Below the pieces are notes generated by a model. It had not been told where the DNA came from and searched no databases. It saw only the letters and a program-made list of their open reading frames with translations. Positions 2,815-55,575 of a stretch of DNA of 64,000 nt are shown here, piece after piece. Within the stretch, counting starts at the first letter, position 1, and each line of letters begins with the position of its first letter. The DNA comes from Dictyostelium discoideum. Lineage: Eukaryota. The DNA lies in the NCBI GenBank assembly GCA_000004695.1, contig CM000153.2, forward strand, positions 96,001-160,000, written 5' to 3'. Both the position numbers and the translations under genes were made by a program.

Positions 2815-3660
2815 TTATTGTTTTTTTTTTAAAATATTTGAAATGAATAATGAAATGATTATTAAAATTGATAATAGATTTTGAAAGATATTTCTGGCAT
2901 CAGAGTATTGATGAACATCATCAGATTGAGTTAAATATTTGAATACTTTTGATTTGCCACTTTTACCATTGGCTGAAACATTGATAAATATCATTTCACC
3001 ATTTTTTATATTATTATTGGTTGTTTGAATAAAACATGTTATCATTGTATCATTAATATAATTTGGTTCATTACAATTTAAAATATCAATACCACTACTA
3101 TTACCACTACCATTACTACAAATTATTGTAACTTTATCAATTGGATAATAGAAATCATTACCAATAATTGTTAAAATACCTCCTTGTTTTAAATTAATTA
3201 TACTATTTTGATTAATTGATGGTTATTTATAGATTATATTAAATGTTGATACTATTTTATTATTATTGTCAAATTGAATCACCAACTGTTATTGATATAT
3301 TAATATTATTTGACGATGGTGATCAAGTTAATCTATTACCATTAATTATTAATAAACCACCTTTTAATTTTGGAATACTATTTACACTTGTTGGAATTGG
3401 TGGACATGTAATTTGAAATTTATTTGGCCAATAATCACAACAACCAACTTGAACATTTAATTTTGATGAGAATGGATCTGAATAATTAAATTTTAATTTA
3501 ATATTTTCAAAATCAACTGAAATAATATCATTTGGATCAAAAGTATTATTATCAATTTTAACAGCAACCAAATTTGATTATTGTATTAATTTGTACCAGT
3601 TATATCAAGTACTGATTCAATAATATCAATATTTTCAAATTTTGGATCTTGATATGTAGT
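2815..3660 (-). pseudogene. Fragment or pseudogene of an IPT/TIG-domain cell-surface protein (tgr-like family). Three coding segments lie in three different frames, with a C-terminal TM anchor.
   Basis: Minus-strand translation gives NTTYQDPKFENIDIIESVLDITGTN*, then (+1) SNLVAVKIDNNTFDPNDIISVDFENIKLKFNYSDPFSSKLNVQVGCCDYWPNKFQITCPPIPTSVNSIPKLKGGLLIINGNRLT*, then (another frame) NQNSIINLKQGGILTIIGNDFYYPIDKVTIICSNGSGNSSGIDILNCNEPNYINDTMITCFIQ...LLSILIIISLFISNIL-KKKQ*. The P.I..S..P..G...GG..I.I.G.N ... C pattern is typical of IPT/TIG repeats. I could not find GT-AG introns that reconcile the frames, so I call it a degenerate copy, or a gene with unusual splicing. Confidence 0.4.
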
Positions 3661-3974
3661 ATTTTATAGTGCTTCGCTGGTCAATGAAGCACTAACTCCT
3701 ACCTGCTTGTGCCTTGAGTCATTAATGACCTAAAATAATTTTTTTTTTTTTTTTAATTATCCAAGAAACTAACCATAGTCATCATTATTTTTTGAGTTTA
3801 AATTTTGGAATAGGCAACTGGTGGTATTAGATTTTTTTTAATTTTTTTTAATTTTTTTCAAATTTTTCTTTTTTTTTATTTTTTTTATTTTTTTTTTTTT
3901 TTTTTTTTTTAAAAAAAAATCTAAAAAATACGATTTATAAAAAAAAAAAAAAAAAAAAAATAATAAAAAAAAAA

Positions 3975-5720
3975 ATGATTTTTAATAAACCAAGTTTAAG
4001 AAATCATTTACCAAAACGTTTAACATTTAAAAAATTAATAAAAAAAGAAAAATATGTTAATACCAATCCAAAATATAATAGAGACAATAATTGTATTCAA
4101 GATATAAAGGTTACCAATGAAGATAGATTATCAAGAAAAATATTAAATAGTTTAGTATTTCATGATGTTTTGGAACATTTAATGGTAAAGATGAAATTTG
4201 AACAACTTTTAGAGCTATCATTAGTATCGAAAACAACATTCAATCTTATTAGGTCTCAACTGTCATTCAATTTTCAACATTATAAATTCAATATTGGATC
4301 ATTCGTTGGTGTTAGAAATTACATATCGGATACATTAGAAAAAGAAATGGATGATCCAAACATATATCAATGTAAACTTTTACCATTCAGAGAAATGGAA
4401 TATATTGCAATGGAATTTGATTCAGATCAACATAAAACCGAAATTTACAATGACTCACATGGTTATGTGTTTAGACAAACAAAGAAATTTAAAAAACTCT
4501 TTAGCTCAACTTGTACAAATCTAAAGAAAGTTCATATTTTAATGAATATTTGTGCACATTTTATAACGGCTCAAGAAATAGATTTTGAAAGAAAATCAGT
4601 ATCCGATCAATTTAAAAGTTCAACATCAGTTGAAATTAAAAAGAAGGCAAGAATGGAATTAATTAGAGATTACTCTCATAACGGATTCTTTACCTATGAA
4701 ACATTAATATTTAATTTAAACATGACATCAATTCCAGTTTCAGATGAACAAGAATTTTATGAACATAGAACATATAAACAACAACCATTTGAACAACCTT
4801 TACCTGCTTTTAAATTTTCATTTAAATTAATTAATAAATATCAACCGAGAGTACTTATAATTAGATATATTCCACCAGCATCATCATCACCACCTGAAGA
4901 AGAATTGGATGTACAATATCCAATATCAGTTTTTAATTTAATAAATTTTGAAAATATTTTTAATTTCCCATCAATTGAAATCGTCAAATTCTTTGATGTG
5001 CCAATTTCAAAATCATTTATAAGGAAACTTTTCACACAAAAAACATGTAAAATTAAAAAATTATTTTTAACAGGTTCTGAAGTTTCCCATTCGATTATTA
5101 GTGAAATCTCATTGGCTTTGGTTGAAAATAAAACAATGTTGAAACAACTTTGTTTAAATACAAATTCCCCAAGAAAGATTTTTCTATTTCAAGCAAATTC
5201 TTTACAACAAAGTTTATTATATCATAAATTTGCATATAAAGATGAAAGAGAAACTTTAGATATAATTCCAAATGATTTCTTTGAAAATTTAAAAATTTTA
5301 ACTCATTTTCATTCTTTAACTTGTATGGATTTATCAAGTCTTACTTTTAATTTAACTAAACTTTTACCTTTAAAACAAATTTTATCACTAGAGAAATTAA
5401 AATATCATTTTCGTTCAAATTATGATGTCTCTCTTTTAAATATTCTATTAGAATATTGTAGAGATCAAAATAATGAAATCATTCAATTAAAATGTATTTT
5501 CGATGATATAAAATCAGTTGGTGATTACTTTAAAGCATTCATTCAATTCTTTTATAATTATACTCTACCAGATAATTATCCACCTTGGTACTTTACTATT
5601 AATATTAAAATTATTGATAAATCTTTCCAAAAAAAAGAATATTTTATTGATTATTTAGAATTAAAATATAAATTATTAAATTCTTCTGAAAATAAACAAA
5701 TTAATGTTATAATAAAATAA
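3975..5720 (+). CDS. Hypothetical protein, 581 aa, with an N-terminal F-box-like motif and C-terminal leucine-rich-repeat-like region.
   Basis: Single long ORF with typical codon usage. An F-box-like stretch is VFHDVLEHLMVKMKFEQLLELSLVSKTTFNLIRS. C-terminal LRR-like segments include LKILTHFHSLTCMDLSSLTFNLTKLLPLKQILSLEKLKY. Family assignment is from motif resemblance only. Confidence 0.55.
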   Translation: MIFNKPSLRNHLPKRLTFKKLIKKEKYVNTNPKYNRDNNCIQDIKVTNEDRLSRKILNSLVFHDVLEHLMVKMKFEQLLELSLVSKTTFNLIRSQLSFNFQHYKFNIGSFVGVRNYISDTLEKEMDDPNIYQCKLLPFREMEYIAMEFDSDQHKTEIYNDSHGYVFRQTKKFKKLFSSTCTNLKKVHILMNICAHFITAQEIDFERKSVSDQFKSSTSVEIKKKARMELIRDYSHNGFFTYETLIFNLNMTSIPVSDEQEFYEHRTYKQQPFEQPLPAFKFSFKLINKYQPRVLIIRYIPPASSSPPEEELDVQYPISVFNLINFENIFNFPSIEIVKFFDVPISKSFIRKLFTQKTCKIKKLFLTGSEVSHSIISEISLALVENKTMLKQLCLNTNSPRKIFLFQANSLQQSLLYHKFAYKDERETLDIIPNDFFENLKILTHFHSLTCMDLSSLTFNLTKLLPLKQILSLEKLKYHFRSNYDVSLLNILLEYCRDQNNEIIQLKCIFDDIKSVGDYFKAFIQFFYNYTLPDNYPPWYFTINIKIIDKSFQKKEYFIDYLELKYKLLNSSENKQINVIIK

Positions 5721-49254: not shown

Positions 49255-49966
49255 TAATTAATTAAATAATAAATTAATTAAATAATGAAAAATAAAAACT
49301 TACAGATAATGATAATAAAATATTTTTTGATTTAATATTAATACCTTGAGATTTTAAAAATAATCTCATTGCAATTTGATCATCAATACATGGGTTTAAG
49401 AAATTGATTGAATCTTGAATAAATTTAATTGTTCTTTGATTTGAACGAATGAAATAGAAACCAGCACAAATATCGTCATCATCTTGTTGAACGTATAAAT
49501 CAATGTCGTCATCGTTAGTGAATTGATTTTCTTGATTAATATCTTGATAGAAATGAATGAATGGATCTCTTTTCCAAACTATATCAGTATCAGTCCATAA
49601 TACATTATAACCTTTTTTTAAAACATCCAATACTACTAATGGTTTTTCATTACAAATCGCTCTAAATCCAATATCACCATATGACTCGGCATTTTCACTA
49701 TAAATTCCTTTATTATCGTTTGTATTATTATCATGAAAAAGTTGTGTTGATGATGTTGAAGAATTTATAATATCATCTCTTGAGAATCTTTGACACTCAA
49801 TACCTTTAAACTCTGCAAAGAATTGATATGCTTTATCATCCATACAATATAAAATGTATCTACTTTTATCAATTGATAACTTTTCAAAACATTTCAATAA
49901 ATTCAATGTCATATCTCTAAATCCATAATTACACATTAATACAATCTTATCATTTTCTTTAATATA
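47819..49966 (-). CDS. agtA: GT77-type glycosyltransferase fused to a C-terminal WD40 beta-propeller, matching AgtA of the Skp1 glycosylation pathway. Three exons, 49966-49304, 49180-48374 and 48277-47819, 642 aa.
   Basis: Exon 1 is MEKKVEYIKENDKIVLMCNYGFRDMTLNLLKCF...VLWTDTDIVWKRDP...FLKSQGINIKSKNILLSLS, a nucleotide-diphospho-sugar-transferase/GT77 fold with a DxD-like TDTD, ending at the GTAAGT donor. After an (AAT)18 intron, atag|GAA gives ENDKKDKIRY..., followed by WD repeats (TTSIDKSIKIWKF, LTSSHDKTIQYWD, FTCSDDNTIRQFDL, SCSNDGTIRFWDIN). A GTAAGC donor and aaag|AGT acceptor lead into SGRCLNIIKGNQGGW...GGNDGTIKIWSC...FSGGFDKQIKSWDL*. The GT-plus-WD40 fusion and the size fit what I recall of D. 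discoideum AgtA, about 648 aa. The ORF-track start at 50020 is a non-ATG artefact. Confidence 0.65.
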
Positions 49967-50069
49967 TTCAACTTTTTTTTCCATGTTTTTTGGGTATAAA
50001 AAAAAAAAAAAAAAAAACAATTACAAAAAAATGATAAACAATTAAATTCTAAAAATAAAAATTTTTATC

Positions 50070-50100
<31 letters not shown>

Positions 50101-50173
50101 TATTTTTTCATCCAAAATGCAAAATTTATATTTTTTTTAAAAAAAAAAAAAAGAAAAAAAAAGAAAAGAAAAA

Positions 50174-50335
50174 ACTCCTCTTTACCAAAAGTAATAAAAA
50201 AAAAATTAAAGTTATTATTAAAAAAAATAATAAACCGATAAAAAAAAAAAAAAAAAAAAAACTCCTCTTTAATTTTTTTTTTTATTACTTTTGGTAAAGT
50301 TATTATTAAAAAAAATAATAAAACGATAAAAAAAA
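50174..50335. promoter_or_regulatory. Tandem duplication of about 87 nt in the agtA upstream region, with the internal 20-nt core inverted between copies.
   Basis: Copy 1 (50174-) is actcctcttta|ccaaaagtaataaaaaaaaaa|ttaaag ttattattaaaaaaaataataaaccgataaaaaaaa. Copy 2 (50261-) is actcctcttta|atttttttttttattacttttgg|taaag ttattattaaaaaaaataataaaacgataaaaaaaa. The core is the reverse complement, between short palindromic ctttaa/ttaaag ends. Confidence 0.5.
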
Positions 50336-50624
50336 AAAAAAAATTCAGACGTTTTGTGTGTCTTTTGGCTTAAAATAAAATTTTCAGTGTAAAAACATTA
50401 TTATTTTGTTAAAAAACATTATTAAAAAAAATCTTTTATCATGTAGCTAAGTTGTGTTGGCATCATTATCGTTTTTTCAGGTAAAAAAAAGCCTTATAAA
50501 AAAAAAAACAATTCTTTTAATTTTATTTTAATTTTTATTTTAATTAAATTTTTATTTTTAATTTTAATTTTAATTTTAATTTTTTTTTTATTTTTTTTTT
50601 TTTTTTTTTATTTTTTTTTTATTT

Positions 50625-50870
50625 TTTTTTTTCATTTAATATATCAATAATAATATTTTATCGAGAAACCACTTTTTAAAATAATTTATTTCTTTTTTTT
50701 TTTTTTTTTTTTTTTTTTTCATTTAATATATCAATAATAATATTTTAATTAAATTTAATTTTTTTTTATTTTTTTATTTTTCTTTTTTTTAAACTATATC
50801 TATCATTTATAAAAACTATTTTTTTTTTCGATTTATATTTATAATTTTAATATATCAACAATTATTTTAA
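50625..50870. promoter_or_regulatory. Direct repeats of the motif TTCATTTAATATATCAATAATAATATTTTA in the agtA/CUE-gene divergent intergenic region.
   Basis: Two copies identical over 30 nt, at 50631-50660 and 50719-50748, each follow a T-run. A third diverged copy is tttaatatatcaacaattatttta at about 50846. Confidence 0.45.
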
Positions 50871-51250
50871 ATTATTTTCCATTAATAATAAGAAATTTTC
50901 CAAATTTAGAAAATCACAAATTTTAATTTCAATTTTTTTTTTTTTTATTTTATTTTTTTAATTACAAAACACCAATTTTTATAATTTTTAAAAATCACTT
51001 TAAACAATTTTATTATTATTATTATTTTTTTTTTAACCACCCCCAAAAAAAAAAAAAATATAATTATTCTCTTTCTTTTTTTTTTTTCTTCAACACTCTC
51101 GCACACATAATTTAATTTATCTGTTATCTTTTCGTGTCATATAATTTATCATTATTAAATAATTAATAATAATAATAAATAAATAATTAAATAAATAAAT
51201 AAATAAATAATAATTTTTTATTACGTATATACACATAATATAAATTTTCC

Positions 51251-51287
<37 letters not shown>

Positions 51288-51312
51288 ATTTAAAAAATAT
51301 AACAATAAAAAA

Positions 51313-52900
51313 ATGGAGGCAGCAACAAATACTTTAAGATCAATGTTTCCAAAGAGTTCAGCAGACCAATGTGTTTCTGCATTAAAAGTTAATAATTGGG
51401 ATTTAAGTGCAACTATTGACTATATGTTAGCACAAACTGCAACTGAGGAACAACAAGTTCAACAACAAGTCCAACAACAAGTTAACCCTTCAATTCCACC
51501 ACCACCACCACCACAAACAATTCCACCACCATTACCAGCCAATGTAATTGAATCTGAAGAGGATAAATTATTAAAAGAATTTTTATTCCTTGAACAACAA
51601 ATACACATTAATAGAATTCCAACTCCACCACCATACAATCCTTCAACAAACAACATTAAACCATCAATTGCTGTAGTTGAAAAGGTTGAGCCAATTTCAA
51701 TTCCACCACCACCTCCACTACCACAACCAATTGTTCATGAACATCAACCACAACAAGAACAACAACAAGAACAACAACAAGAACAACAAGAAAAACAAGA
51801 GGAAGAACCAAAAACTAGAGAAAATAATAGTTTATTAAGAAATATTACAAATACTCTTAAAGAATTGGAAAATGAAGTTAGAAATTTAGTTATGGAAAAG
51901 AAACCACAACCAAATGTTGTTGAAACTGTTGAAACTACTGAAACCGTTATCTCAAATAATAACAACAACAATGACAATGTTGAAAATATTGCTCAAAATA
52001 ATATCGAACAATTAGTTGAAAAAGTTGAACAAGAACAACAAGAACAAGAAGAAGAACAAGAAGAAGAACAAGAAGAAGAACAAGAAAATAATGAAAACAA
52101 TAATAACAACAATAGTCAAATACCAAATGAAGTTAAAGTTGCAATCGATCAATTGGAATCATTATTTAACTCTTCATTAGAAAAAACTGAAAAGATTTTA
52201 AATGAATTAAAAGAAGAAATTACAAGTTGGAAAATTAAAGATAATGTTAAAACTTTCACCGTTACCGTTAGAAATGAATTATCTGATATGTTGGCCTCTT
52301 TAGCAAACTATATCTCACCAGAACAAACTGTAAATACTCAAGAAGAAATTGAAACTGGTTTAATTTAAACTTTGATTTTCAATATCATCATTATTTATTG
52401 TTGTTGTTCTTTTTATTTTCCTCTTTTCTATTTTTTTATGTACCTTTAACTCTTATTTATTTGGATTAAAATAGTTTGGTCTCTTTTTATTTCCTCTTTA
52501 AACTACTTTCTATCTCAACATAAAAAAAAAAAAAATAATAAAAAACTTTCTTCCATATACTACTTTCTATCCACTTCCTTTCTAAACTTTTTTTTTTTAA
52601 GATATAGTTCTCTCCCCTTTATAATTTTCCAATTTTATTGTTCTTTTTTTTTTACTAATAATAATCTTTTTTTTAAAATTTTTTTAGCAAGTTCAAATTC
52701 AAAGAAAGGAAGCAAAAAGACAAGAATTAGAGAATAAATTAAAAGAATTAAAGGAACATAATAGAAATTTAGAAGAGGAAAGAAGAATTGCAATTGAAAA
52801 GATTGAAAATAAATATAAACAACAAACAACAACTACAACCTCTTCTGGTAATCAAATTCCACCACCACCACCATATCCAGAAGAAAATTCTGAACAATAA
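51313..52900 (+). CDS. CUE-domain protein, Pro/Gln/Glu-rich. Proposed two exons, 51313-52329 and 52688-52900, about 409 aa. Alternatively a single exon ending at 52368.
   Basis: The N-terminal CUE-like domain is NTLRSMFPKSSADQCVSALKVNNWDLSATIDYML, with the MFP motif. Proline-rich PPPPPQTIPPPLP and an acidic coiled-coil follow. The segment 52688-52900 is an open, coding-like 71-codon frame: QVQIQRKEAKRQELENKLKELKEHNRNLEEERRIAIEKIENKYKQQTTTTTSSGNQIPPPPPYPEENSEQ*. It is immediately preceded by tttttag and an in-frame TAG, so it must be a spliced exon. The only phase-compatible donor upstream is GTAAAT at 52330 (...ISPEQT|). That would make a 358-nt C/T-rich intron. Confidence 0.55.
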
Positions 52901-53066
52901 ATAATATATTAAGTTTTAAATAAATAGTTTATGTATCTTTTAATATATACATTTTGTGCATTTTTTTTTTTTTTTAATATTATTATTATTATTTACAAAA
53001 AAAATTTATTTATTTATTAATTTATTTACAAGTTTATTTTGTTTATTTTTTTTTATTATTTTTTTT

Positions 53067-55575
53067 TTATCTAGTAATTGTATATTTATTATTACCACTT
53101 TTTAAAATCATTCCTTGATTATTTAAACCTTCTAAAACATCATTAAAATTTTCAAAAGGTAATTTATATTCTTTAACAATTTGTAAGAGTTCTTGTTTTG
53201 AAAAAGTTGATGTACCAGTTTTTGAGGCTTCTTTATTGAAAATTGAAATATATTTTTTAGATAAACCACTTTTACTCATACCAGTGGCTCTTCTAAAATC
53301 AATATTACCATGTTCATCTTCAAAAGTATCCAAAAGTGAATCTCTCATAATCTCTACGATATCGATTGCATCTTGTTCTGTAACGGTTTCACGTAATTCA
53401 AGTTTTGCTCTTGCTTCTGCTAAACGAATTAATGATTCCAATTGACGAGTTGTAACTGGCATTGAATCAGAACCTGTAGATTTTGAACGAAGTTCTAAAT
53501 AAAATTTTTGTATAACTTTAATTGCCTCTTCTGAAAGTCTTGGTGAAACATATTTCTTTGCATAACTTATATATTTTCTAAGGATAACTGTTGGAATTAA
53601 ATTAATCTCTTGACCATGAGTTATTAATAATTTTTGTTTTAATGGTAATGATTTATCATGATCTTCTTCATGAGTATATTGAGATGAATTTGTTGTTGCC
53701 GAGGATGATGATGATGATTGTTGAGGTTTTCTTTTTTTAACGCCTGATCCATTTGAATGAAGATTTAAAATATTATGAGAGATAATATGATCCTTTTCAG
53801 TGTTTGGTTTATCCATTAAAATGAAAATTAAATCGAATCTACTGAGTAGTGGTGCACTCATTTTGATATTTTCTGAAACTGTCTTTGCACGATTATAATG
53901 ACCCCCGACTGGATTAGCAGCAGCAACTACAGATGTACGAGCTGGTAAATTACAAACAATACCAGCCTTTGCAATACTAACCGATTGTTGTTCCATTGCT
54001 TCGAGTAGAGCAGGATGTTCATCTGTCATCTTATCGAATTCATCTATACAACAACAACCTTGATCCGCCAATACCAAAGCACCAGCTTCAATTGCAAAAT
54101 CACCTGAACCTTTTTCTCTTAACAATGTTACAGTTAAACCTGTTGTACTTGAATAGCCACCACAAACATAAACACCACGAGGTGATAAATGATAGATCGA
54201 TGTTAACATTTGACTTTTACCTAAACCAGGATCACCAACAATTAAAACATGTGGATCCGATCTAATTGATAGTTTATTCTTGTCGGATCCATTACTACTT
54301 CTATTTGGACTACCACCAAACAAAGCCAATGTTAAACCTGCTTTAACCAATTCATGCCCATAGATGGTTGGACAAATTGAATTTGAAATTAATTTGAAAA
54401 TATTTGGATGTTCAGCAATCTCTTTAATACCATACATATCCTTTAAAGAGAAGGAGGTAGTTTCAATCTTTCCTCCATTGCCACTAGTTCTCTTTGGGGA
54501 ATCTATAGAGTTTACATCTATATAAATGAGGAAAACAGGTTTATTTTGATTTTGAAAACCTGTTTCCTCTGCTCTTAATACTTTTACAACACCACTAATG
54601 GTCACAATATCGCCAGGTACAATAGTTTCAACCATTTCATCGGTGATTTCACATTCAAATGCTTTTGGTATACCACTTGATTCCTTTTGGTCGGCATCCT
54701 CTTGAATTCTAATTTTTTGCCAATCTATAGTGACGGCGGTTGATCTATCCGGTTCGAATATTTTACCTCTACAACCATGATTTAAACAATTTGAAGGAAA
54801 TGTAACTTTTCCCTCTGTAAAATATTGTGTTGGTGTACGTGTTGAACATTTATTACAAATGAATTGCATTTGAGTTACCAATGGTTTAACATTACCAACA
54901 CGAATTACAGTACCTTTTAATGAAACAAATTTATCAATAAGATTTGCTTTCAATTTCTTTAATTGTAATAATGGTTCAAAATGAAATATCCTTATATTTA
55001 TCTTTTTCTTTGGTCTTTGACTCTCTGAAACATTTTCATATAATACTTGATAAATTACAACACCTAAACAATTAATTACCATTTCTGAATCATCTCTTAA
55101 TCTAATTTCAAATTGATCTTCTACTCTATAAATTTGATTTTTTAATAATTGATAATCTAATGGTATTGTATTATTTTCATCTGGTGCATAAAGTGTCTAA
55201 AATAATAATTTTAATTAATTTAATAAATCAATTAATAATTTTTGTATTATTTAATTTTTATCTTACCTCATTACAAACATCTCTAAAAAGTGGAAGTGAT
55301 AATTGAATGAATTGATGTCTCTTTTCAAGTATTGCCTCTTGATTTAATTTTTCATCACCATTTTCAATAATTTTATTTGTTTTTGGTGGGAAATATAGTT
55401 TATATCCAATTAACTCATCCAATTGCGGATGTTGTTGTTGTTGCTGCTGTTGTTGACTTTGTTCTCTTTGTATAGTTTGTTGAGATTTAAATTGGACATA
55501 GTCATCACCTTCACTATTATTTCTTCGAATAATTTGTGTATTTGTGTTATTATTATTATTATTATTATTATACAT
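53067..55575 (-). CDS. mcm8: MCM8 (MCM-family AAA+ helicase, MCM8 subtype). Two exons, 55575-55267 and 55196-53067, 812 aa.
   Basis: Exon 1 (ORF 55258-55575) ends ...LFRDVCNE at the GTAAGA donor. The acceptor ttag|ACA gives TLYAPDENNTIPLDYQLLKNQIYRVEDQFEIRLRDDSEMVINCLG..., continuing into ORF 53067-55082. The MCM8-specific Walker A is GDPGLGKSQML, where MCM2-7 have GDP(G/S)(T/V)(A/S)KSQ. Long matches to human MCM8 include FAIEAGALVLADQGCCCIDEFDKM, ALLEAMEQQSVSIAKAGIVCNLPARTSVVAAANPVGGHYNRAKTVSENIKMSAPLLSRFDLIFIL and TTRQLESLIRLAEARAKLELRE. The zinc finger is CNKCSTRT...CLNHGC. Confidence 0.9.

Follow-up and report, generated by a model that had tools for sequence, protein, structure and literature searches.

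A coiled-coil/PPxY reading frame downstream of a Dictyostelium discoideum CUE-domain gene as its probable last exon, behind a long C/T-rich intron

We analysed a stretch of 64,000 nucleotides (nt) of Dictyostelium discoideum DNA (GenBank assembly GCA_000004695.1, contig CM000153.2, positions 96,001 to 160,000; hereafter the window) and, within it, a gene for a CUE-domain protein together with a short reading frame that lies downstream on the same strand. The window is AT-rich Dictyostelium DNA (78.5% A+T). The CUE gene begins at 51313, and its open reading frame (ORF), 51313..52368 (+), is complete in itself, i.e. it codes for 351 amino acids (aa) and ends in EEIETGLI followed by a stop codon. 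The second frame, 52688..52900 (+), consists of 70 codons and a TAA (71 codons if the stop is counted), reads QVQIQRKEAKRQELENKLKELKEHNRNLEEERRIAIEKIENKYKQQTTTTTSSGNQIPPPPPYPEENSEQ and lies directly 3' of the acceptor sequence TTTTTTAG. The original prediction took this frame to be an exon that is bounded on its 5' side by an in-frame stop and has to be joined to the CUE gene through a GTAAAT donor at 52330. The frame is present where it had been placed, and all coordinates of the prediction were correct. Comparison with related species very probably establishes both the membership of the exon and the junction 52329^52688, on the grounds of orthologous gene models, intron-less orthologous ORFs, splice signals and the conservation of the second exon.

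The downstream frame has no start codon of its own. No in-frame ATG occurs within 52688..52900, the sole ATG in the 358 nt on its 5' side (52438) opens an ORF of 3 codons, and no upstream mini-exon carrying an ATG was found for it. The 5' context reads ...AAAATTTTTTTAG, where the TAG at 52685-52687 provides the AG of the acceptor and the in-frame upstream stop at the same time. An AATAAA is found 19 nt 3' of the stop codon. The claim that the frame cannot stand alone is thus upheld, since it is without an ATG and is joined to the CUE gene in the orthologues. We note that its length alone is not significant, as stop-free runs of at least 70 codons occur about 13 times in shuffled copies of the window. 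Its coding nature is indicated instead by codon usage (-3.17 in frame as compared to -4.3 in the other frames), by its nucleotide identity with D. citrinum (90-92%, whereas flanking non-coding DNA is 58-66% identical) and by protein conservation across Dictyostelia. Of the codon differences from D. citrinum within the first 44 codons, 5 are synonymous and 2 non-synonymous.

The GTAAAT donor, whose first letter is 52330 (+), falls precisely between two codons (phase 0) of the ORF that begins at 51313. Without splicing, this ORF runs on for 12 codons (VNTQEEIETGLI, then a stop) to 52368. Exon 1 accordingly covers 51313..52329 (+), i.e. 339 codons ending in ...ANYISPEQT; its end was set by the phase-0 donor and by colinearity with the intron-less orthologues described below. 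The 3' splice site TTTTTTAG at 52680..52687 (+) is conserved in three orthologous loci (L001, L002 and L006), and a GTAAAT donor as well as a T-run before a TAG acceptor are found both in these and in a fourth one, L004. A branch-point-like TACTAAT at 52653..52659 (+) places the branch A 29 nt upstream of the acceptor and presumably acts as the branch point; a CTAAY motif is seen 24-39 nt upstream of the AG in 5 out of 5 intron-bearing loci. Of 43 in-frame GT..AG pairs, 52330/52687 alone combines a GTAA donor with a T-run acceptor and with a CTAAY box at a distance of 29 nt from the AG. The other combinations were checked and rejected as splice sites, since the consensus signals occur at this pair alone. 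The intron has the usual features of the spliceosomal GT-AG class, i.e. a consensus-like donor, a pyrimidine run before the AG and one continuous frame after its removal. The product of the junction 52329^52688 is 409 aa long, and in the AlphaFold2 model the junction falls into a short loop between confidently predicted helices.

The homology search with this spliced 409-aa product returned 7 proteins. The 4 closest, P0001/P0008 of D. discoideum and P0002 and P0003 of D. citrinum, are 412-421 aa long and cover 100% of the query, tail included; the models P0001-P0003 cover 100% of exon 1 as well. Loci were fetched for 3 of these 4 models, and each of the three proteins could be rebuilt by removing one GT..AG intron at the homologous codon (L001, 4018-4406, 389 nt; L002, 4024-4411, 388 nt; L006, 4045-4432, 388 nt). 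The junction through the GTAAAT donor at 52330 is therefore backed by orthologous models. It is also backed by genomes in which nothing has to be spliced. Four genomic orthologues carry the CUE domain, the helical domain and the coiled coil in a single intron-less ORF: Heterostelium album PPL_09299 (L005, 3001-4401), an environmental dictyostelid (L007, 441 aa), and the assemblies GCA_000787575.2 (L008) and GCA_000203815.1 (L009), which we take to be Acytostelium subglobosum and Cavenderia fasciculata. The L007 contig is genomic DNA, because a convergent MCM8 gene lies downstream of the CUE gene as it does in the window. The spliced window product and L007 are colinear over the junction, residue for residue (ISPEQT|EES... 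and ISPEQT|QVQ...), and the sequence ISPEQT|QVQIQRKEAKRQ aligns without gaps to ISPEQTEESMRKKEEKRK of L007 and likewise to the single-exon genes L005, L008 and L009. The expectation that orthologues in other dictyostelids end in the same kind of tail was borne out: the coiled coil is present in every full-length member, and a strict PPxY occurs in about half of the lineages.

Two observations on the loci themselves may be added here. Two JGI contigs of one environmental dictyostelid (L003, 1465-1480, and L007, 1470-1681) differ by one base in an A-run, and this one-base difference in L003 truncates the protein P0005 (380 aa), whereas L007 runs on to 441 aa with PPPY and PPVY; the difference is probably a homopolymer assembly error. 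Gaps counted, the window (compared over 50021-53300) differs from the 'D. discoideum' locus L001 by about 6% in the first exon; the figure is 14% for the intron and 17% for the 5' intergenic DNA. This seems high for one species, and one of the two, the window or those assemblies, might belong to a lineage of the D. discoideum complex that has diverged.

The public D. purpureum model requires a separate comment. The protein P0006 (DICPUDRAFT_91085, 345 aa) ends ...ISPSQEYQS-VNTNEPQPIPTDLL, i.e. inside the intron. The D. purpureum locus (L004, GL870946.1) has a GTAAAT donor at 3994, in phase 0, and a TTTATAG acceptor that ends at 4331, which together define an intron of 338 nt (T 50.9%, C 13.3%, G 3.6%). 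The 92 codons after this acceptor read EEGLNKRELKRIELENKLKQLKEYNRQLEEERRIAIE...APPTYYYH... up to a stop, and the exon contains ELENKLKQLKEYNRQLEEERRIAIE and PPTY. Splicing 3993^4332, with exons at 3001..3993 and 4332..4608, gives a protein of 422 aa in which the conserved coiled coil and the PPTY are regained. Because of this phase-0 donor, the acceptor and the downstream tail exon, we regard DICPUDRAFT_91085 as truncated by reading into the 338-nt intron; as annotated, it is without the conserved coiled coil and the PPTY tail. In other words, the D. purpureum model shows the same misreading that would end the window gene at 52368.

One alternative is that the gene does end at 52368; the frame 52688..52900 would then be open by chance, be a relic in decay, or belong to another transcript, either antisense or independent. 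In its favour, the 351-aa ORF needs no further exon to be complete, the D. purpureum gene has been annotated publicly in just this way, and a stop-free run of 70 codons is, as said above, a common event at the composition of the window. Nevertheless, we consider this explanation very unlikely. The frame has the codon usage of coding DNA and a conservation of the purifying-selection type, its sequence directly continues the protein in the 4 intron-less genomes, and neither an in-frame ATG nor an ATG-bearing upstream mini-exon is there to start it. As to an antisense origin, the minus-strand frames over the intron and the exon are not conserved ORFs, and between 52900 and the end of the convergent MCM8 gene at 53067 there is a 3'-3' spacer of 166 nt, which is a normal size. 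A minus-strand gene within the intron was likewise rejected, as stops abound in 3 out of 3 antisense frames and none of these frames is conserved over the 5 loci.

Some observations do weigh against the spliced two-exon gene. An exact look-up of the 409-aa and the 351-aa products in the protein collection found neither of them, at least one annotation pipeline chose the unspliced reading (P0006), and the codons read through beyond the donor look coding and are fully conserved in D. citrinum, which points to a possible use of the unspliced form as well. When homologues of the 142-aa C-terminal part alone were sought, no match was obtained and P0001 itself was missed, a result that we take as a limit of the word index and not as biology. 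We conclude that, as far as can be read from the sequences, the exon belongs to the CUE gene and is joined at the position given, and that the position, size and composition of the intron are kept within the D. discoideum/D. purpureum group. With the splicing 52329^52688 the 'orphan' frame becomes a normal last exon, i.e. an ordinary terminal exon behind an atypically long intron, which is already present in newer annotations of sister genomes. The 351-aa ORF ending in EEIETGLI is then best read as the result of reading into the intron, and the protein of the locus should be annotated as the 409-aa spliced form.

The intron, 52330..52687 (+), is 358 nt long, in phase 0, and reads GTAAAT...TTTTTTTAG. 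It consists of 50.8% T, 14.5% C, 29.1% A and 5.6% G, i.e. it is 65% pyrimidine, and its strand asymmetry lies in the top ~3% among 358-nt windows. Its distinctive feature is C, which is about twice as frequent as in other T-rich non-coding windows of this DNA (C 5-8%). D. discoideum introns have a median length of 104 nt and a mean of 132.6 nt (PMC4683709); the present one is thus 3.4 times the median and 2.7 times the mean. The description of a long, C/T-rich intron given in the original prediction therefore holds, and an equivalent of 338 nt exists in D. purpureum. Apart from T-rich low-complexity stretches, k-mers common to the two introns do not reach 9 nt; there are only a few 8-mers, the clearest being the donor GTAAATAC. 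Conservation of the intron sequence itself between the two species was consequently rejected. What is kept are composition and length, which are nearly equal in spite of so little common sequence, and we therefore regard great length and richness in C/T as traits that the D. discoideum/D. purpureum group has conserved in this intron, as judged from the two loci. The other dictyostelid lineages sampled are without this intron; it would have been gained in the group-4 lineage, or else lost in the others.

Within the intron the conservation is unevenly distributed. Block 1, proximal to the donor (52330..52395, +), is 98.5-100% identical to D. citrinum, with a perfect run of 65 nt at 52324-52388. 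Block 2 (52451..52520, +) is 91% identical, gap-free, and includes a perfect run of 45 nt. Elsewhere, identity with D. citrinum amounts to 42-57% in the rest of the intron, 58-66% in intergenic DNA and 83-92% in the exons. Block 2 ends at the first copy of the 13-mer ACTACTTTCTATC, which occurs at 52502-52514 and at 52559-52571 (+) and nowhere else in the 64-kb window (2 copies; 0.11 expected), and its core ACTTTCTATC is kept at both positions in D. citrinum. Between the two copies lies an A-rich island (52519..52545, +) with the sole AATAAA of the intron (52537-52542), which might, speculatively, be a candidate intronic polyadenylation (poly(A)) signal. In all intron-bearing orthologues AATAAA likewise occurs just once in the intron, at a distance of 194-228 nt from the donor, although the evidence is weak as about 0.37 per intron is expected by chance (an estimate from composition). 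We read the conserved elements tentatively as elements that regulate splicing or 3'-end formation. They represent a modest lead for the study of such regulation in an organism whose introns are normally around 100 nt long.

The read-through extension, 52330..52368 (+), i.e. VNTQEEIETGLI and a stop, would be a possible alternative C-terminus if the intron were retained. Its 12 codons have a codon usage of -3.04 in frame, as compared to -4.2 to -4.6 out of frame and about -4.1 in the rest of the intron, which is within the top 2.4% among non-coding 36-mers, and they are identical in D. citrinum. The D. purpureum read-through (VNTNEPQPIPTDLL, then a stop) is also coding-like (-3.52 vs -4.1). Given the coding-like usage of the read-through codons and their full conservation in D. 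citrinum, there may be a second isoform: besides the 409-aa form, intron retention or cleavage and polyadenylation at about 52540-52570 would produce a 351-aa protein ending in VNTQEEIETGLI, without the coiled coil and the PPPPPY tail, and the pyrimidine-rich intron with its conserved blocks would regulate the choice. This proposal is compatible with the spliced two-exon gene and adds to it. It is favoured by the same codon-usage pattern in the independent D. purpureum read-through, by the conservation of the first 66 nt of the intron and of a second block of 70 nt while the remainder diverges like intergenic DNA, by the single AATAAA per intron, by the two copies of an intron-specific 13-mer that enclose the A-rich island, and by an intron size and composition kept between D. 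discoideum and D. purpureum, whose divergence is said to date back about 400 Myr (PMC4683709). On the other hand, a sample of 12-14 codons is very small, a stop is expected within about 16 codons at such a composition (an estimate), and the 'VN' common to the read-throughs is dictated by GTAAAT itself. Moreover, a single AATAAA per intron exceeds the number expected by chance by a factor of only about 3, block 1 is no better conserved than the exons next to it, where perfect runs reach 83 nt, and the intron-less species have no equivalent short form. On balance we regard two isoforms as possible, though less probable than a single spliced product.

A regulated switch, in which retention or intronic polyadenylation sets whether the CUE protein is made with or without the dimerisation helix and the PPxY tail, is more doubtful still. 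It is suggested by the kept position, size and composition of the intron, by blocks conserved at the level of exons, by the coding-like read-through and by the single AATAAA island between the 13-mers. If it exists, such a switch would be a rare case of functional alternative 3'-end processing in Dictyostelium. As for the C-terminus EEIETGLI, which the original prediction regarded as replaced, the spliced form indeed ends in exon 2, but the read-through is conserved and so may be used as well.

It could also be imagined that a non-coding RNA gene (for a snoRNA, a class I RNA or the like) or a stably folded RNA lies in the intron, since two conserved blocks stand within an otherwise fast-evolving intron of unusual composition. 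There is little probability in this. Rfam gave no match in 52330-52687 at E values of up to 10, and the fold is no more stable than that of shuffled sequences (minimum-free-energy z = +0.95 in the window intron, -0.78 in that of D. purpureum), and on these two results the candidate was rejected. In addition, no C/D or H/ACA box arrangement was seen by reading both strands, and no complex k-mer of 9 nt or more is held in common with the D. purpureum intron.

We return to the spliced two-exon gene and the protein that it would encode. The N-terminus corresponds to a CUE-like domain of the UBA fold (residues 1-42, 51313..51438, +) with an MFP motif. The isolated window sequence scores 15.2 bits (E 0.018) with Pfam CUE (PF02845), below the cut-off of 21.1 bits, and UBA_4 and UBA_8 score similarly; however, PF02845 matches 4 out of 8 family members, with a best E of 6.1e-8. 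The residues M11, F12, P13 and L39 are invariant across 8 sequences. AlphaFold2 predicts helices at 2-11, 17-26 and 31-52 (pLDDT 70-81), and the best Foldseek matches are the CUE domains of CUEDC1, SMARCAD1 and Tollip, which are not significant (E of at least 0.96). The best conserved part of the protein is a family-specific helical domain (…LEKTEKIL…SWKIKDNVKTFT…, 52120..52314, +; residues ~270-334) with dense invariant columns and predicted helices at 272-305 and 308-334 (pLDDT 85-93), for which no significant Pfam family was found. Exon 2 begins with a leucine-zipper-like coiled coil or helix (…ELENKLKELKEHNRNLEEERRIAIEKIE…, 52688..52825, +), predicted at residues 340-390 of P0001 with a pLDDT of 86-96. 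Its invariant residues L353, L357, L360, N364 and L367 are spaced 4-3-4-3, i.e. they follow a heptad a/d pattern. The C-terminal tail is predicted to be disordered, with a pLDDT below 50 from residue 391. With a pTM of 0.21, the model gives no reliable picture of how the helices are arranged globally.

Known families for the C-terminal half were rejected: CENP-U scored marginally (21.6 vs 21.0 bits), ScpB, PDCD7 and others stayed below their cut-offs, and we consider these matches to be marginal noise of the coiled-coil type. A Foldseek search with the whole model matched only the CUE/UBA fold, and not significantly. An exhaustive profile search of 1.84 billion representative proteins found 9 members only, every traced one of which is from a dictyostelid. 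The family is therefore small, and it appears to be restricted to dictyostelids, as judged by this search, apart from two weak, untraced matches. An unnamed D. discoideum 'CUE domain-containing protein', which may or may not be the product of the present gene and was left out of account here, is reported from proteomics to be enriched on the proteasomes of ATG16-null cells (PMC10252828). Experiments on function may start from the ending shared by all members, a zipper-like helix to which PY motifs are often added.

The tail carries a PPPPPY, i.e. a PPxY motif, at 52859..52876 (+). When tail motifs are scored as strict [PL]PxY, they are present in the window, D. discoideum, D. citrinum, the re-spliced D. 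purpureum protein (PPTY), P0004 (PPQY) and L007 (PPPY, PPVY), and they are absent in H. album, L008, L009 and P0011; the tails of H. album and L009 are Tyr-rich. A regular-expression search of the spliced product found a further PPPY in exon 1 (residues 105-108, IPTPPPYNPS; 51625..51636, +), which occurs in the window, D. discoideum and D. citrinum only and not in D. purpureum or more distant species. According to the original prediction, joining exon 2 would create a CUE protein that ends in a PPxY. Since exon 1 already has a PPPY at 51625-51636, exon 2 is not the source of the combination of CUE and PPxY.

The further proposal, that the PPxY makes the protein an adaptor of HECT ligases, is not supported beyond the motif itself, which is real and lies in a predicted disordered tail. 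The adaptor reading is weak in view of the patchy conservation of the tail PPxY in about half of the lineages, the PPPY in exon 1 and the distribution of Nedd4-like ligases. A eukaryote-wide survey of HECT ligases places the C2/WW Nedd4-like group in Holozoa together with fungal and apusozoan clades, lists none for the 3 sampled Amoebozoa, and infers an origin of the group in the ancestor of Apusozoa and Opisthokonta (PMC3673628).

The scheme that we propose is as follows. The gene would consist of exon 1 (51313..52329), the GT-AG intron 52330..52687 and exon 2 (52688..52900). The 409-aa product would comprise the N-terminal CUE-type ubiquitin-binding domain, low-complexity linkers, the family-specific helical domain and the part encoded by exon 2, i.e. 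the leucine-zipper-like helix followed by the disordered proline/tyrosine tail with PPPPPY. The protein would dimerise through the helix of exon 2 and act as a ubiquitin-binding scaffold, while the tail would recruit a reader of proline motifs (a WW, SH3 or similar domain). As regards function, we would not go beyond such a scaffold, one that binds ubiquitin, dimerises and recruits a proline-motif reader of some kind.

The gene downstream of the CUE gene is MCM8 (53067-55082, -), with the Pfam domain WHD_MCM8 in the orthologous loci. The CUE-MCM8 pair is syntenic in D. discoideum, D. citrinum, D. purpureum and the environmental dictyostelid (L001, L002, L004, L006, L007). In H. album, L008 and L009 a small gene of the FlK family (PF22636) follows the CUE gene in place of MCM8. 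On the 5' side of the CUE gene, perfect runs against both D. citrinum loci are found at 50875-50920 (46 nt) and 50976-51006 (31 nt) in surroundings that are 58-61% identical; they are candidates for promoter elements, be it of the CUE gene or of its divergent upstream neighbour. The same intergenic DNA has direct repeats at 50598-50771 and 50207-50343. One repeat is based on an 87-nt unit (79% identity) with TTTCATTTAATATATCAATAATAATATTTTA twice, the other on a 49-nt unit (98% identity) whose copies are 88 nt apart. The upstream neighbour in L001 (1-1727, -, 646 aa) combines Nucleotid_trans (PF03407) with many WD40 beta-propeller matches, whereas the ORF of the window at 49274-50020 (-) looks like the glycosyltransferase part only. 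The 646-aa neighbour may be a fused gene model or a multi-exon gene.

Among known genes, the closest are the D. discoideum and D. citrinum models (the NCBI entries KAM9973946.1 and KAM9976012.1, and the ACTFIV_003318 and ACTFIU_000021 products), which show 90-98% protein identity (MAFFT), one phase-0 intron at the same codon, a last exon with the coiled coil and PPPPPY, and a convergent MCM8, as here. The intron of the window is about 30 nt shorter than theirs, with the indels in T-rich variable parts. H. album PPL_09299 (a 'CUE domain-containing protein' in UniRef) and D. purpureum DICPUDRAFT_91085 belong to the same family and agree in domain order; in H. album the coiled coil and a Pro/Tyr-rich tail lie in one exon. 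Unlike the window gene, the H. album gene has neither the intron nor a strict PPxY.

Outside the family, partners of the yeast ligase Rsp5 also have ubiquitin-binding domains: Rup1 combines a UBA domain with PPxY, and Vps9 undergoes CUE-dependent mono-ubiquitination by Rsp5. They resemble the present protein in having a UBA-fold domain and a PPxY-type ligand in a disordered region; unlike it, they depend on a WW-HECT ligase of the Nedd4 family, and there is no homology. Human CUEDC1 is likewise a small CUE-domain protein, and its CUE domain is the top Foldseek match, although not a significant one (E 0.96). CUEDC1 is reported to bind the WW-HECT ligase Smurf2, a binding that is not attributed there to a PPxY of CUEDC1 (PMC7655170). 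No homology was detected beyond the CUE fold; nevertheless, the CUEDC1-Smurf2 pair is the nearest functional analogy and, as reported, connects a CUE protein with an E3 ligase in the manner that the original prediction had in mind.

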